Below are positions 39,211 through 43,672 of a DNA stretch of 45,272 bases, piece by piece; position 1 is the stretch's first letter; every line of letters starts with the position of its first letter. The position numbers were made by a program, and so were the translations under genes. The notes beneath the pieces are model-generated. The model saw only the letters and a list, made by a program, of their open reading frames with translations, was not told where the DNA came from and made no database searches. The DNA comes from Escherichia phage HannyBb, in sequence record PP925841.1, one strand, 5' to 3'.

Positions 39211-39423
39211 TCATGAAAGGTAAACATTGGCAGCTGAAGGGCCACGCAGACCATTTATCCGGCAAAATTCCACGCGTAATCCGGTGGTAATTTCTTCTGC
39301 ATCGCGGAGATTGAGCGCTGAAACATGAAGCTGGACATCGATACGACCATCGGATGGGGTGATAAGACCCTTGCCGCTTTTGCCGTCAAAGGTTTTGACA
39401 ATTCCTGTCATTTTACGGGACAA
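39211..39423 (-). CDS. cspF: Cold-shock-like protein, CspF/CspH type
   Basis: 70 aa, [26 protein letters not shown]...[21 protein letters not shown]; divergent from cspB as in Qin. Confidence 0.8.
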
Positions 39424-39723
39424 AAAAATTCCTTAATACTGATAACCTGGTGCACCATACACACGTTCCTGAAGAAAGCTATAGTTTTTTGATGGGGTTG
39501 AAGATGGCTGGATGTCTAAAATAAACATTGCTTCATATGTTCAACTATGCGTTAATGATTGCGTCGGTTTGAAGAACAGACGATATACGAAGTAGTTTAC
39601 TAAAGCAGTTCTCATTTCAGGTGTTATTCACTTATTCCTTCTTTGAGTCTCTCCAATTAAGTACGAAGTCGTTTCTGTTATGCAAACCATTTATGCCGAA
39701 AGGCTCAAGTTAAGGAATGTAGA

Positions 39724-39939
39724 ATGTCAAATAAAATGACTGGTTTAGTAAAATGGTTTAACGCTGATAAAGGTTTCGGCTTTATTTCTCCTGTTGATGG
39801 TAGTAAAGATGTGTTTGTGCATTTTTCTGCGATTCAGAATGATAATTATCGAACCTTATTTGAAGGTCAAAAGGTTACCTTCTCTATAGAGAGTGGTGCT
39901 AAAGGTCCTGCAGCAGCAAATGTCATCATTACTGATTAA
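39724..39939 (+). CDS. cspB: Cold shock protein CspB
   Basis: 71 aa, [67 protein letters not shown]; preceded by a ~160-nt AT-rich leader. Confidence 0.9.
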
Positions 39940-40221
39940 AATTCATCGCTCGTCTGTATACGATAACGAAGAAGGCTGATGCCTGAGTAGAGATACGGAC
40001 AGAGTAGTGAATATTGGATCTCTTTAATAAAAAGTAAGGAGGTCCAATACATGAAACAATGGCCAGCATATTTGGCAAAATCTTAATCAGGAAAAGTATG
40101 CTAACCATTGTGGTGAAGTGCAGGTTTGCTGCATGAATAGTTTCACAGCAGAAGCTAACTGCTGGCATCGCAAAACAAAGTGCGTAAGTGGATGACTCCC
40201 ACAAAAAGCACCACAATCTCA

Positions 40222-40246
40222 AACCCGCTCAGGCGGGTTTTTTATT
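40222..40246 (+). terminator. Rho-independent terminator after cspB
   Basis: AACCCGC-TCAG-GCGGGTT followed by TTTTTTATT. Confidence 0.6.
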
Positions 40247-40302
40247 ATCTGCTTTAAATATATTATTAAAATATAAAAAATACTTGTTACTAATAAAATC
40301 AA

Positions 40303-40473
40303 TCAGGCTACAGCTTTAAGATTTGTCTGGAATACTTTGTTGCAATGAGGGCAGATCAAAAGGGCACCTTTTTGTACTCTTGAAAAACTGTGTTCTGACT
40401 CTTGGGTGCAGTTTGGGCAGGAACATTTAACGAGATAATTACGGCGTGATTTTGAGTCTTTACGTTCTGACAT
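40303..40473 (-). CDS. Small zinc-ribbon protein
   Basis: 56 aa from MSERKDSKSRRNYLVKCSCPNCTQ...ICPHCNKVF with two CxxC pairs. Confidence 0.45.
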   Translation of the reverse strand: MSERKDSKSRRNYLVKCSCPNCTQESEHSFSRVQKGALLICPHCNKVFQTNLKAVA

Positions 40474-40692
40474 AGGCTTTTCCTGTATAAATGGCCGTAT
40501 ACAGTACACTAAATATGAAAACATTTCTCGTATTATTATTTTATATATGACTTTCTTTCAAAATAATTACTCACATTTTTAATGTGTATGTTTCTTTAGC
40601 GCCGTTGAGAACAACGTGTGCTGTCAAAACTACCCCGTAGACTCCGATCTTTTCAAACATATTGCACCATCCGTGTACATCGGGGTGAGGAT

Positions 40693-40908
40693 ATGAAATC
40701 AATGGATAAGTTAACAACAGGTGTTGCCTATGGCACATCGGCGGGTAATGCTGGTTTCTGGGCATTGCAGTTACTCGATAAAGTAACTCCGTCACAGTGG
40801 GCTGCAATCGGTGTGCTGGGTAGCCTGGTTTTTGGCCTGCTGACGTATCTGACAAATCTTTATTTCAAGATTAAAGAAGACAGGCGTAAGGCTGCGAGAG
40901 GAGAGTAA
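40693..40908 (+). CDS. Class II holin / pinholin (phage 21 S21 / EssD-like) with dual-start motif
   Basis: 71 aa, [71 protein letters not shown]; two Met codons (M1, M4); GGTGAGGAT Shine-Dalgarno. Confidence 0.82.
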
Positions 40909-40912
40909 TCCA

Positions 40913-41224
40913 ATGACTCAAGACTATGAACTGGTTGTGAAAGGAGTCCGTAATTTTGAGAATAAAGTTACGGTAACTGTAGCCTTACAGGACAAAGAAC
41001 GCTTTGACGGTGAAATTTTTGGCCTGGATGTCGCCATGGACCGTGTTGAAGGAGCTGCGCTGGAGTTTTATGAGGCAGCAGCCAGAATGAGCGTCCGGCA
41101 AGTCTTCCTGGAAGTAGCAGAAAAATTGTCAGAAAAAGTTGAGTCTTATCTGCAGCATCAGTACTCCTTTAAGATTGAAAATCCTGCCAATAAGCACGAG
41201 CGTCCTCATCATAAATATCTATGA
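40913..41224 (+). CDS. Hypothetical protein between holin and endolysin (YdfR-like position)
   Basis: 103-aa ORF tightly packed in the lysis cassette. Confidence 0.45.
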   Translation: MTQDYELVVKGVRNFENKVTVTVALQDKERFDGEIFGLDVAMDRVEGAALEFYEAAARMSVRQVFLEVAEKLSEKVESYLQHQYSFKIENPANKHERPHHKYL

Positions 41225-41754
41225 ACACAAAAATCAGATACGGCCTGTCGGCTGCCGTTCTGGCGCTGATTGGTGCTGGCGCATCTGCTCCTCAGATACT
41301 TGACCAGTTTCTGGACGAAAAAGAAGGTAACCACACAATGGCATACCGCGATGGTTCTGGCATATGGACCATCTGTCGGGGTGCCACAGTGGTGGATGGA
41401 AAAACCGTTTTTCCCAATATGAAACTGTCGAAGGAAAAATGCGACCAGGTCAACGCCATTGAGCGTGATAAGGCGCTGGCATGGGTGGAGCGCAATATAA
41501 AAGTTCCACTGACCGAGCCACAGAAAGCCGGTATCGCGTCATTCTGTCCCTATAACATTGGCCCTGGTAAGTGTTTTCCGTCGACGTTTTATAAGCGGCT
41601 TAATGCCGGTGATCGTAAAGGCGCATGCGAGGCGATTCGCTGGTGGATAAAGGACGGTGGACGTGATTGCCGCATTCGTTCAAATAATTGTTACGGTCAG
41701 GTTATTCGTCGTGACCAGGAGAGTGCATTAACCTGCTGGGGGATAGAACAGTGA
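41221..41754 (+). CDS. SAR endolysin (lysozyme, T4-lysozyme-like fold)
   Basis: 177 aa; N-terminal signal-anchor-release segment ([18 protein letters not shown]) then catalytic E...D...T spacing ([22 protein letters not shown]); pairs with the pinholin. Confidence 0.85.
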
Positions 41755-42248
41755 ATCAGATATTCACGGTGATTTTGCTCGTGTTGGTAGGATTTGTCGT
41801 AGGTAATGTCTGGAGCGACAGAGGATGGCAAAAAAAATGGGCGGAGCGTGATGCTGCCGAATTATCTCAAGAGGTAAATGTCCAATTTGCTGCTCGAATA
41901 ATTGAACAGGGGCGAAGTATATCCCGTGATGAGGCTGTTAAAGATGCACAACAGAAAGCCGCTGAAATTTCTGCCAGGGCTGCTGATCTGTCTGATAGTG
42001 TTAACCAGCTGCGTGCCGAAGCAACAAAATATGCCATACGCCTTGACGCAGCGCAGCATACCGCAAATCTTGCCGCTGCCGTCAGAGGCAAAACAACCAA
42101 AGCCGCCGAAGGAATGCTCACCAACATGCTCGGAGATATTGCAGCAGAAGCTCAGCTTTATGCTGAAATTGCTGACAAACGCTACATCGCAGGAGTGACT
42201 TGTCAACGGATTTATGAATCTTTAAGAGATAAAAAATATCAGATGTAG
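41751..42248 (+). CDS. Rz-like inner-membrane spanin
   Basis: 165 aa; N-terminal transmembrane helix ([15 protein letters not shown]) then coiled-coil periplasmic domain; directly after the endolysin. Confidence 0.75.
41944..42198 (+). CDS. Rz1-like outer-membrane lipoprotein spanin, embedded in Rz in another frame
   Basis: ORF nested in Rz with a signal peptide and lipobox ([11 protein letters not shown]) followed by a Pro-rich mature region; start may be 41929 or 41944. Confidence 0.6.
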
Positions 42249-42611
42249 ATTAATATTAAATCGGATTATTTTTAGCGCTGAATGTGAAATTTAAATAAAA
42301 AGGACTCTTCCATGAGTCAAAATCCTTGAAATCTTAAGGGTAAGATAAAAGGTCATTAGACAGAATGACACGTTTTATTAATAAATAAAGCTATTGTTTC
42401 ATTCGTGTGTTTTTCTTTACAAAAGTAATCCTTGCTATGGTTGGTTAATCATGCGTTAATGGTGTTCTGGTTTGTTACAAAATTATCTGAAGCAGTCATT
42501 GTTATAATTTTATTATTTGTACCTCTTGAGATTTCCTTGTTGGTTTTTCTCTCTGATATTTTTTTTCGGACCATTCTGCCCAAGGGCTAACTTCTTCAAA
42601 AGGTAATAATG

Positions 42612-42824
42612 ATGTCTAACAAAATGACTGGTTTAGTGAAATGGTTTAACCCTGAAAAAGGTTTTGGTTTCATCACGCCGAAAGATGGTAGCAAAGATGT
42701 GTTTGTGCATTTCTCAGCTATTCAGAGCAACGATTTCAAAACGTTAACTGAGAATCAGGAAGTCGAATTTGGTATTGAGAACGGACCTAAAGGCCCTGCA
42801 GCTGTTCATGTAGTGGCACTTTGA
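42612..42824 (+). CDS. cspI: Cold shock protein CspI
   Basis: 70 aa, [70 protein letters not shown]; long AT-rich leader; an extra in-frame Met lies at 42609. Confidence 0.88.
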
Positions 42825-43029
42825 GGTAGAAAATATTACAAACCATATTCACTTTAGATGCCCGTGTTGCCATGGTTCTCAGTATAGAACATCATCTTTT
42901 GATGTTTCTGACAGAAATCCTTTCGGGGCAAAATGTATCTTTTGTAAATCAATGATGATTACATTTGATAATATTTCACAATACTTAAATGTTAGCCATC
43001 TGTCGTTAGATTTAAGAAAGTGAAAATGA

Positions 43030-43052
43030 AGGCTCCTTCGGGAGCTTTTTTG
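43030..43052 (+). terminator. Rho-independent terminator after cspI
   Basis: GGCTCC-TTCG-GGAGC followed by TTTTTTG. Confidence 0.5.
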
Positions 43053-43095
43053 CTTAGTGTCTAGTCGATGGATACTCACATATTACGGTAACATT

Positions 43096-43326
43096 ATGAA
43101 AAAAATAATAGTTTTTTTTAACTCTGAACCAGCAATGGTAGTGCCAGTGATGACCGGAGTTAACACCATCATGCGTGAATATCCAAATGGCGAAACAACA
43201 CACCTCACTGTAATGGCTGCAGGGTTTCCATCTCTGACCGGAGATCATAAAGTCATTTATGTAGCAGCGGATCGACATGTAACTTCAGAAGAAATTCTGG
43301 AAGCAGCAATGAGACTCTTGAATTGA
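43096..43326 (+). CDS. Hypothetical small protein (YnfN-like position)
   Basis: 76 aa from MKKIIVFFNSEPAMVVPV..., between cspI and gnsB. Confidence 0.4.
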   Translation: MKKIIVFFNSEPAMVVPVMTGVNTIMREYPNGETTHLTVMAAGFPSLTGDHKVIYVAADRHVTSEEILEAAMRLLN

Positions 43327-43498
43327 TTTGATTCTAATGCATTGATAATAAATGATAATCATCTTTATCTGTTTGTGTGAAATTTAGACCGTCGTATGTT
43401 GATTATTGCGATGTTTCATCTTATCTTTTATACGTTTGCTCCATATAATTGACACTACTGTGTACCAGGACAGTCATAACAGACTAAAAGAGGAAATG

Positions 43499-43672
43499 AT
43501 GAACATTGAAGAGTTAAAAACAAAAACAGAAGCAGATATTTCTGAATATATAACAAAAAAAATCATTGAGCTTAAGAAAAAGACCGGGAAAGAAGTTACC
43601 AGTATCCAGTTTACTGCACGGGAAAAAATGACTGGTCTTGAAAGCTATGATATCAAGATTGATTTAATCTAG
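43499..43672 (+). CDS. gnsB: GnsA/GnsB-family protein
   Basis: 57 aa, MNIEELKTKTEADISEYITKKIIELKKKTGKEVTSIQFTAREKMTGLESYDIKIDLI, matching the recalled GnsB pattern. Confidence 0.7.
   Translation: MNIEELKTKTEADISEYITKKIIELKKKTGKEVTSIQFTAREKMTGLESYDIKIDLI

Follow-up and report, generated by a model that had tools for sequence, protein, structure and literature searches.

Cold-shock genes of Qin type as probable late-region cargo around the lysis cassette of Escherichia phage HannyBb, with a candidate structured RNA downstream of cspB

The cold-inducible group of the Escherichia coli CspA family comprises CspA, CspB, CspG and CspI. CspB and CspI are cold-induced, and their mRNAs carry 5' untranslated regions (UTRs) of 160 and 145 nt, respectively, both containing a cold box as well as a downstream box (PMC6719143). 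A common temperature-dependent switch, between a closed fold and a shorter, open one, was observed in the cspB, cspG and cspI 5' UTRs; cspG and cspI have been named as thermometers (PMC13271884). At 37 °C the leaders of cspA, cspB and cspG are bound by Rho, which is excluded in the cold (PMC12360218). The Qin origin of cspB, cspF, cspI and gnsB and the cspA-type cold induction of cspB and cspI are already textbook knowledge, and the Qin csp genes have earlier been listed as horizontally acquired cargo (PMC6379469). A second described system is that of the morons of lambdoid phages, such as stx in Stx phages, which are carried between Q/PR' and the holin gene S and have their own promoter, terminator and deviant base composition. 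The present analysis concerns positions 39211–43672 of the DNA of Escherichia phage HannyBb (PP925841.1), a 4.46-kb block in which three csp genes and gnsB surround the lysis cassette; the whole stretch of 45,272 nt is referred to as the window. With a probability of about 90%, this region is late-region cargo of a lambdoid temperate phage of the Qin/Tritos type, arranged as two AT-rich blocks that bracket the lysis cassette.

The gene order and orientation are those of the K-12 Qin prophage (b1550–b1558, cspF-cspB-ynfU-essQ-ydfR-rrrQ-rzpQ/rzoQ-cspI-ynfQ-ynfR-ynfN-gnsB), with 96.5% DNA identity to MG1655 over window positions 38732–43670. CspF, CspB, CspI, EssQ and RrrQ are 100% identical to the K-12 Qin proteins, RzpQ differs at 17 of 165 residues and GnsB shares 53 of its 57 residues with K-12 GnsB (36 of 57 with GnsA). 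The synteny with the Qin lineage was borne out by the neighbours dicF, hokD/sok, ydfU, Q, pinQ and ydfK, which are shared with K-12. Megablast matches to the block at 99.5–99.8% identity were obtained in many E. coli chromosomes (Qin-type prophages), in which the genes are named cspF/cspB/ynfU/essQ/ydfR/rrrQ/rzpQ/cspI/ymcF/ynfN/gnsB, and of 5426 complete E. coli genomes, 1602 (∼30%) contain at least 80% of the block. A search for the CspF locus in IMG/VR added no diversity, since all copies returned came from E. coli prophages and were 99% identical.

Qin is a 20-kb remnant, whereas HannyBb is a complete phage genome of 45.3 kb. The window spans from the large terminase gene (1–2100) to the small terminase gene (44725–45264) and also has head, tail, integrase, exonuclease (recombination), dicB/DicF, hokD/sok, ydfU and Q genes; with no visible defect, HannyBb is apparently an intact temperate phage, unlike Qin. 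Its relative Tritos (OV696610) is 98.7% identical over window positions 1–25000. In Tritos, 2H10 (NC_049950), PhiR63_1 (PV340573) and PhiR42_1 (PV340562) alike, the same lysis cassette is surrounded by cspB, cspI and gnsB, with cspF intact in the latter three and disrupted in Tritos; the cargo that these four phages carry in the early region and ahead of Q is not that of HannyBb. HannyBb therefore adds context: the Qin cargo belongs in this case to a temperate phage of the Tritos kind that is apparently intact. It follows that the cold-shock repertoire of about 30% of the complete E. coli genomes would in part be acquired as mobile phage cargo, the csp genes being mobile rather than a fossil peculiar to K-12.

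The block lies in late-gene territory, as the initial annotation of this DNA had proposed: the late-gene antiterminator gene Q (ydfT/quuQ type; 36343–37095, +) was recognized by Pfam Antiterm (PF03589, 168 bits) and is ydfT in homologous genomes, the holin gene begins at 40693 and the small terminase gene at 44725. That annotation had listed a cspF-like gene and cspB, divergently arranged upstream of the lysis cassette, and cspI and gnsB downstream of it. The coordinates and orientations of all four were reproduced from the list of open reading frames (ORFs) and Pfam; the cspF-like gene is simply cspF, and four further genes, ynfS, ynfU, ynfQ and ynfN, had been missed. The first block would extend from Q/PR' to the holin gene. 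It would hold cspF (39211–39423, −; TTG start; Pfam CSD 77.8 bits, NCBIfam CspF subfamily 160.4 bits at a cut-off of 111 bits) with ynfS downstream of it (39067–39156, −; a 29-aa small protein; Pfam YnfS PF23697, 80.9 bits), then cspB (39724–39939, +; CSD 109.1 bits) with its leader, 3' RNA and terminator, and finally, convergent with cspB, the gene of the zinc-ribbon small protein YnfU (40303–40473, −; Pfam YnfU 107.7 bits, NCBIfam zinc_YnfU_fam 79.8 bits). The lysis cassette (40693–42248, all genes +) consists of the P21-type holin gene essQ (40693–40908; Pfam Phage_holin_2_1), ydfR (40913–41224; Pfam DUF1327), the lysozyme gene rrrQ (41221–41754; K-12 annotation), rzpQ (41751–42248; Pfam DUF2514) and, embedded in rzpQ, the lipoprotein gene rzoQ (41944–42198; K-12 annotation). 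The second block would follow Rz/Rz1 and comprise the cspI-ynfQ unit, ynfN and gnsB, all on the plus strand: cspI (42612–42824; CSD 108.4 bits), ynfQ for a YmcF-like cold-shock small protein 10 nt after it (42835–43023; Pfam YmcF-like 116.5 bits), ynfN (43096–43326; full-length at 76 aa; phrog_3425, 186 bits) and gnsB (43499–43672; 57 aa; Pfam GnsAB, also GnsAB_toxin, PF08178, 114.5 bits). CspF, CspB and CspI each consist of a single cold-shock domain of ∼70 aa above the Pfam cut-off, which is 27 bits for both CSD (PF00313) and GnsAB, and the RNP1 (KGFGFI) and RNP2 (VFVHF) motifs are present in both CspB and CspI. The ynfN gene has 76 codons here compared with 51 annotated in K-12, and a K-12-like record flags a frameshift.

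Both blocks deviate in base composition, with a G+C content of 30–40% in 37000–40600 and 42200–44000 compared with 45–50% in the lysis genes and 48% in the window. The cspB unit ends at an intrinsic terminator 282 nt past the stop codon (40221–40246, +; terminator scan; −12.8 kcal/mol, z = −4.5), the cspI-ynfQ unit at a hairpin with a U-run near 43028–43051 (+; fold) and gnsB is followed by a terminator of its own (43735–43756, +; terminator scan and fold). The cspF-ynfS unit ends at 38895–38918, a strong bidirectional hairpin (terminator scan and fold; −23.6 kcal/mol, z = −8.4 on the plus strand; −14.8 kcal/mol, z = −6.1 on the minus strand) which is a candidate tR' in the plus direction and the ynfS-cspF terminator in the minus direction. 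In the homologous phages other cargo, or none, is found at these sites. Phage mEp460 has the same types of Q, holin and lysozyme, but its first slot, from Q to the holin gene, is filled by a methylase gene and hypothetical genes, and its second, after Rz, is empty; in mEp460_ev081 the first slot lacks cspF and cspB and has yet other cargo, whereas the second contains a gene resembling cspI together with ynfN and gnsB. Because the cargo differs in this way, the two blocks act as independent cargo slots, i.e. as morons: cspB and cspI have their own promoters and terminators, are absent at the same site in homologous phages and lie in DNA of deviant G+C content. The proposal that the csp genes are independently regulated morons is thereby upheld as to the promoters, the terminators and the variable slots, with the correction that the units exceed single csp genes. 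The first slot is that of the stx-type morons, and the promoter, terminator and base composition agree with theirs; the HannyBb cargo differs from stx in consisting of stress-physiology genes under RNA-thermometer control, with no virulence link seen. A candidate late promoter PR' (TTGCAT, 17 nt, TAAAAT; 38821–38849, +) was found from the sequence and by alignment; by inference only, it would be the likeliest PR', with 38895–38918 as its tR'.

Comparison with the cspA thermosensor group (RF01766; CspA/B/G/I) placed cspB and cspI within it, with leaders above the gathering score (78 bits) and with the promoter type and the boxes of the group. The RF01766 match at cspB extends over 39563–39955 (158.8 bits, E = 1e-41) and that at cspI over 42454–42870 (110.1 bits, E = 2e-27). 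The cspB promoter (TTGCTT, 17 nt, TGcGTTAAT with an extended −10; 39528–39556, +) is homologous to the cspA and cspG promoters, and the cspI promoter (TTGCTA, 17 nt, TGcGTTAAT; 42432–42460, +) is a repeat shared with it. The predicted transcription starts, 39563 and 42467, are the seventh base after the −10 element; this promoter geometry gives cspA-type leaders of 161 nt for cspB (39563–39723, +; 37% G+C) and 145 nt for cspI (42467–42611, +; 32% G+C), in agreement with the published lengths. No base of the cspB promoter or leader differs from K-12. The cspI leader differs from that of K-12 at two positions in 145 nt, plus one base at 42611, where a T-to-G change creates an extra in-frame ATG (42609–42611) one codon upstream of cspI.

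The promoter, cold box, upstream box and downstream box could all be aligned with K-12 cspA and cspG. The core of the cspB cold box, UGAAGAACAGA, is as in cspA at 9 of 11 positions. The upstream box is exact in cspB (GCCGAAAGGC) and compensated in cspI (GCCCAAGGGC), where the stem is kept, and the downstream box AUGACUGGUUUAGU is present in both genes (in cspB at 39736–39749). In the minimum-energy folds calculated with ViennaRNA, both leaders are drawn together with the first ∼30 coding nt into one long stem-loop, the leader pairing with codons 5–10, in which the Shine–Dalgarno sequence (SD) and the AUG are buried (unpaired probability ∼0.1–0.25); this closed fold matches the 37 °C structure from dimethyl sulfate probing (PMC13271884). 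The genes cspI, ynfQ and ynfN are co-induced under replication stress (PMC11228462), a joint response that fits a shared or adjacent unit. A putative Rho utilization (Rut) site has been described upstream of the cspI promoter (PMC12360218); given this site, transcripts from the lysis cassette may be terminated by Rho before cspI unless the polymerase is Q-modified. The rzpQ–cspI intergenic region (42249–42611) has a G+C content of 30%.

On this basis the cargo would work as follows. In the lysogen, cspB and cspI would be transcribed from their own σ70 promoters. At 37 °C the leader and the first ∼30 coding nt would form the large stem-loop that hides the SD and the AUG, and Rho acting on the cspB leader would, from published work, help repression. 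After a shift to ∼10–20 °C a shorter, register-shifted leader fold that binds Rho poorly would form and translation would begin; the CspB and CspI so produced would build up, act as RNA chaperones and supplement the CspA/CspG response of the host. GnsB would raise the content of unsaturated fatty acids when overproduced: overexpression of GnsA or GnsB increased unsaturated fatty acids and rescued cold-sensitive mutants. Cold induction, thermometer switching, Rho control and the GnsB phenotype are taken from the literature. For lytic growth, we infer that Q-modified polymerase, having started downstream of Q, would traverse every one of these units together with the terminators. It would cross cspF and ynfU in antisense, and cspB, cspI, ynfQ, ynfN and gnsB in sense; the suggestion that Q-antiterminated transcription has to cross these genes was right on the anatomy.

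Several points weigh against this account. The cold box of cspI is degenerate, with GGUUUG alone retained. The switch to the cold form was not reproduced, as equilibrium folds at 37, 25, 15 and 10 °C were all closed; with the closed form predicted at every temperature, the thermometer step rests on the published probing of the K-12 sequences, and cold regulation in HannyBb itself would likewise follow from sequence identity to K-12. PR' is a consensus match only, which the promoter scan did not list, and the module to which it belongs is present in two diverged copies. A benefit to the lysogen is only presumed, and the csp genes are known to be redundant in K-12.

There is a small chance that the csp genes serve the phage rather than its host, CspB and CspI being made in lytic growth and sustaining late expression, lysis and packaging in the cold outside the gut, as RNA chaperones or transcription antiterminators. 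Such a role would suit the position of cspB, cspI, ynfQ, ynfN and gnsB, which are co-oriented with and inside late transcription, as well as the retention of the set in intact, inducible phages; in K-12, moreover, DNA damage induces cspI, ynfQ and ynfN, a response that depends on LexA and SspA, and it is established that CspA-family proteins can be transcription antiterminators (PMC11228462). However, the autonomous promoters and thermosensor leaders are complete and do not differ from those functioning in a defective prophage, the leader fold at 37 °C would block translation of read-through transcripts too, the same cspF-cspB cassette is found in non-phage chromosomal contexts of other genera (see below) and close phage relatives manage without these genes. 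A role for the phage is not needed, because regulation is autonomous and the cassette also occurs outside phages.

It is very improbable that the genes are neutral hitch-hiking remnants with no present function for phage or host. They are missing from many related phages, cspF is broken in Tritos and, according to PMC2847246, the cspB–essQ interval serves as a neutral chromosomal integration site in K-12. Against neutrality, the eight nucleotide differences between cspI and its K-12 counterpart are all synonymous (8/8, with no non-synonymous change), which shows that cspI is under purifying selection; the regulatory leaders are conserved to the base, the cassette including its covarying RNA has been kept across genera and at least 80% of the block persists in about 30% of complete E. 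coli genomes. Least credible of all is a defence or addiction module, with GnsB as a toxin and CSD proteins like the retron Se72 effector protecting the lysogen or stabilizing the prophage, which was rejected: the Pfam/RefSeq family name (`GnsA/GnsB toxin / addiction module toxin') and weak matches to PADLOC CSD_V (23–55 bits) and NCBIfam retron_eff_Se72 (22–55 bits) speak for it, but the latter scores are far under the 82-bit cut-off, the PADLOC matches are to the generic CSD_V only, neither a reverse transcriptase ORF nor a retron non-coding RNA was found nearby in the ORF list and Rfam, YnfN (encoded upstream of gnsB) shares only 14 of 76 residues with the proposed antitoxin YmcE, has no Pfam match and is not a YmcE homologue, and overexpressed GnsB rescues growth, with no killing, in published work.

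Within the favoured reading of the region as lysogen-borne cargo with cold-regulated csp genes, cspF stands apart and falls entirely outside the cold-inducible group. No RF01766 match was obtained on the minus strand, on which cspF lies, even at E ≤ 1, and no convincing cspF promoter appeared in the consensus promoter scan. A cspA-type leader for cspF was ruled out, as nothing in Rfam matched the minus strand at E ≤ 1. CspF is without the RNP1 and RNP2 aromatic residues, having GKGLIT and VQLHV instead, and W11 is lacking. CspF and CspH have been described as having three or four aromatic residues (CspF only three), a divergent RNP2 and no known function, and cspF is not among the csp genes listed as cold-induced (PMC6719143). 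With no cspA-type leader, no RNP aromatic residues and no such listing, the status of cspF as a cold-shock gene is not supported. A −10-like element (TATGGT/TATAGT) common to cspF and cspH lies ∼30 nt upstream of the start codon and hints at a candidate short leader. The initial annotation had spoken of a phage-borne cold-shock set in which each csp gene has its own long AT-rich leader and a terminator, and had proposed to look for cold-box and downstream-box elements and for cold induction. As published data exist for identical sequences, these checks were in effect already done: cspB and cspI pass (cspI as part of the cspI-ynfQ unit and with its degenerate cold box), their cold induction being published for identical or near-identical sequences, and cspF fails, with no cspA-type leader and no listing as cold-induced.

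The item that may be new here is an RNA in the 3' UTR of cspB (39940–40246), which within the cspA thermosensor group is the only long structured one, cspA, cspG and cspI being without. The cspB stop-to-terminator interval is 96% conserved among Qin-type phages, and the 3' region folds with −105 kcal/mol compared with −70.6 ± 5.3 kcal/mol for shuffled sequences (z = −6.5). From the fold, covariation and a covariance model (R1), a conserved structured RNA of 163 nt was delimited at 40055–40217 (+). In the five-helix model proposed here it consists of the hairpin P1 (40058–40070/40097–40109) and a closing helix P0 (40110–40115/40209–40214) around P2 (40118–40123/40129–40134), P3 (40146–40151/40159–40164) and P4 (40188–40192/40198–40202). 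Phage PHB10 and the phage-plasmid Cyrano also have the 3' half of the element, again after genes resembling cspB. Homologues were searched for with a two-motif pattern (GCAGAAGCTAACTGC, 5–30 nt, AAAGTGCGTAAG), which matched 26 species-representative genomes and at least 120 IMG/VR contigs. The element was found in Kosakonia, Enterobacter, Kluyvera, Phytobacter, Raoultella, Superficieibacter and Pseudescherichia and also in Escherichia ruysiae, and at nearly every locus with upstream sequence it lies 160–210 nt after a CspB-like gene (64–100% identity).

In a MAFFT alignment of 22 distinct sequences the five-helix model pairs in 97.2% of cells, compared with 21–52% for controls in which the model was slid along the alignment. 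Eleven pairs changed on both sides compared with 4.0 ± 1.4 in shuffles (0 of 500 reached this number), a test that overstates significance because the aligned sequences share descent, the independent compensatory events being modest in number. P0 is paired in 100% of cells and shows A:U to G:C and U:A to C:G exchanges; RNAalifold alone recovered P1–P4 and chose a weaker pairing in place of P0. The G:U pairs speak for the cspB sense strand, on which 97.2% of cells pair compared with 91.8% on the antisense strand. Model R1 scored 142 bits at the element, which is present as a single copy in the window, and found no copy near cspI, cspG or cspA, nor in mEp460; when 40 distinct sequences were aligned to the model, pairing held in 96% of cells and covariation was seen at 15 pairs. 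The single-stranded AAAGUGCGUAAG and the AAGCUAA loop are both invariant among the homologues, which were themselves gathered via two invariant motifs, and a search of the window for a pairing target of AAAGUGCGUAAG found none.

No Rfam 15 family matched the element, even at E ≤ 10 on the short interval, nothing is marked at its position in the genome annotations inspected and no description of an RNA in the cspB 3' UTR was found in the literature searched. The element is also present in K-12, yet is missing from Rfam 15 and from the inspected annotations. That it is an undescribed, functional structured RNA carried in a portable cspF/cspB/RNA/ynfU cassette is put forward tentatively, at slightly short of even odds. 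It might govern how the cspB mRNA decays by blocking the 3' exonucleases that cold induces, might itself be processed into a stable RNA, or might serve as a binding partner of CspF or of the zinc-ribbon protein YnfU; the element is tied to a four-part cassette in which CspF and YnfU are of no known function. Just upstream of the element, a perfect 14-bp hairpin (40013–40049) hides a strong AAGGAGG Shine–Dalgarno sequence before an 11-codon ORF (40052–40087; MKQWPAYLAKS) which overlaps the 5' arm of P1 and is conserved only among Qin-type phages. This ORF is probably not a gene, as it is unconserved outside E. coli, with P-to-L and KS-to-IT changes.

In the other genera the order is a cspF-like gene (−), a cspB-like gene (+), the RNA, often a ynfU-like gene (−), sometimes ynfQ, and then a ynfN-like gene (+), with no lysis genes. 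The contiguous lysis-free cassette was found in Kosakonia, Enterobacter, Kluyvera, Phytobacter and Raoultella, and in Kosakonia it is flanked by chromosomal genes for an AcrB-family pump and UmuC. Since such lysis-free cassettes occur elsewhere, cspF/cspB/RNA/ynfU appears as a portable cassette which the Qin-type phages hold between Q and the holin gene, and it may move through Enterobacteriaceae chromosomes, lambdoid phages and one phage-plasmid. The phage arrangement looks like a cspF-to-ynfN cassette combined with a lysis module.

A related arrangement is the core locus cspH-cspG-ymcF-ymcE-gnsA, present in 5365 of the 5426 E. coli genomes, which is colinear with the phage arrangement minus the part from mid-cspB to the start of cspI. 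Its 5' side (cspH, the divergent intergenic region and the leader) resembles the cspF-cspB side and its 3' side (the 3' part of cspG, ymcF and gnsA) the cspI-ynfQ-gnsB side; the K-12 locus aligns to window positions 39215–39838, 42612–42971 and 43481–43659. It differs from the phage arrangement in having no lysis cassette, no ynfU and no 3' UTR RNA element, and its ymcE is unrelated to ynfN. In the upstream region and leader, 55 informative sites group cspG with cspB compared with 18 against; downstream, 87 group it with cspI compared with 23 against. Over leader, coding sequence and flank the maximum chi-square was 19.2, with a breakpoint near cspG codon 24 (p < 0.0005); within the cspG coding sequence alone the mosaic signal gave p = 0.24. 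The mosaic is compatible with an old recombination between cspB and cspI that would have removed a lysis cassette. Other histories would fit too, because a contiguous cspF-cspB-RNA-ynfU-ynfN arrangement exists in other genera.

Upstream of the first block, a 1.6-kb AT-rich insert (37137–38731) that is absent from K-12 Qin was recognized by BLAST against K-12 and by alignment; it is present in PhiR63_1. It is bounded by a repeat: the last ∼60 nt of Q and the next ∼40 nt (37039–37136) recur, diverged, at 38732–38829, and in K-12 Qin, Q is joined directly to the second copy, the one with the candidate PR' at 38821–38849, without the intervening 1.6 kb. Both copies of the Q end are followed by a promoter-like element and a terminator, namely the hairpin-plus-U terminator at 37203–37221 (terminator scan and fold) for the first copy and that at 38895–38918 for the second, and HannyBb may have two PR'-tR'-like modules. 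A small ORF within the insert (38256–38540, −) matches phrog_11629 (157 bits), of unknown function, and has a hydrophobic tail; in related prophages RefSeq has a 61-aa hypothetical protein at this ORF.

Elsewhere in the window, ydfK (23065–23298, −), annotated in RefSeq as a cold shock protein and 100% identical to K-12 YdfK, adjoins the pin invertase gene (22158–22748), so that the phage has further cold-shock-annotated genes beyond the four-gene block. The sok antitoxin RNA of the hokD locus (34141–34315, +; Rfam, 115 bits) and the small RNA DicF (28885–28936, −; Rfam, 72.5 bits), the other known Qin RNA genes, both appear to be intact in HannyBb.

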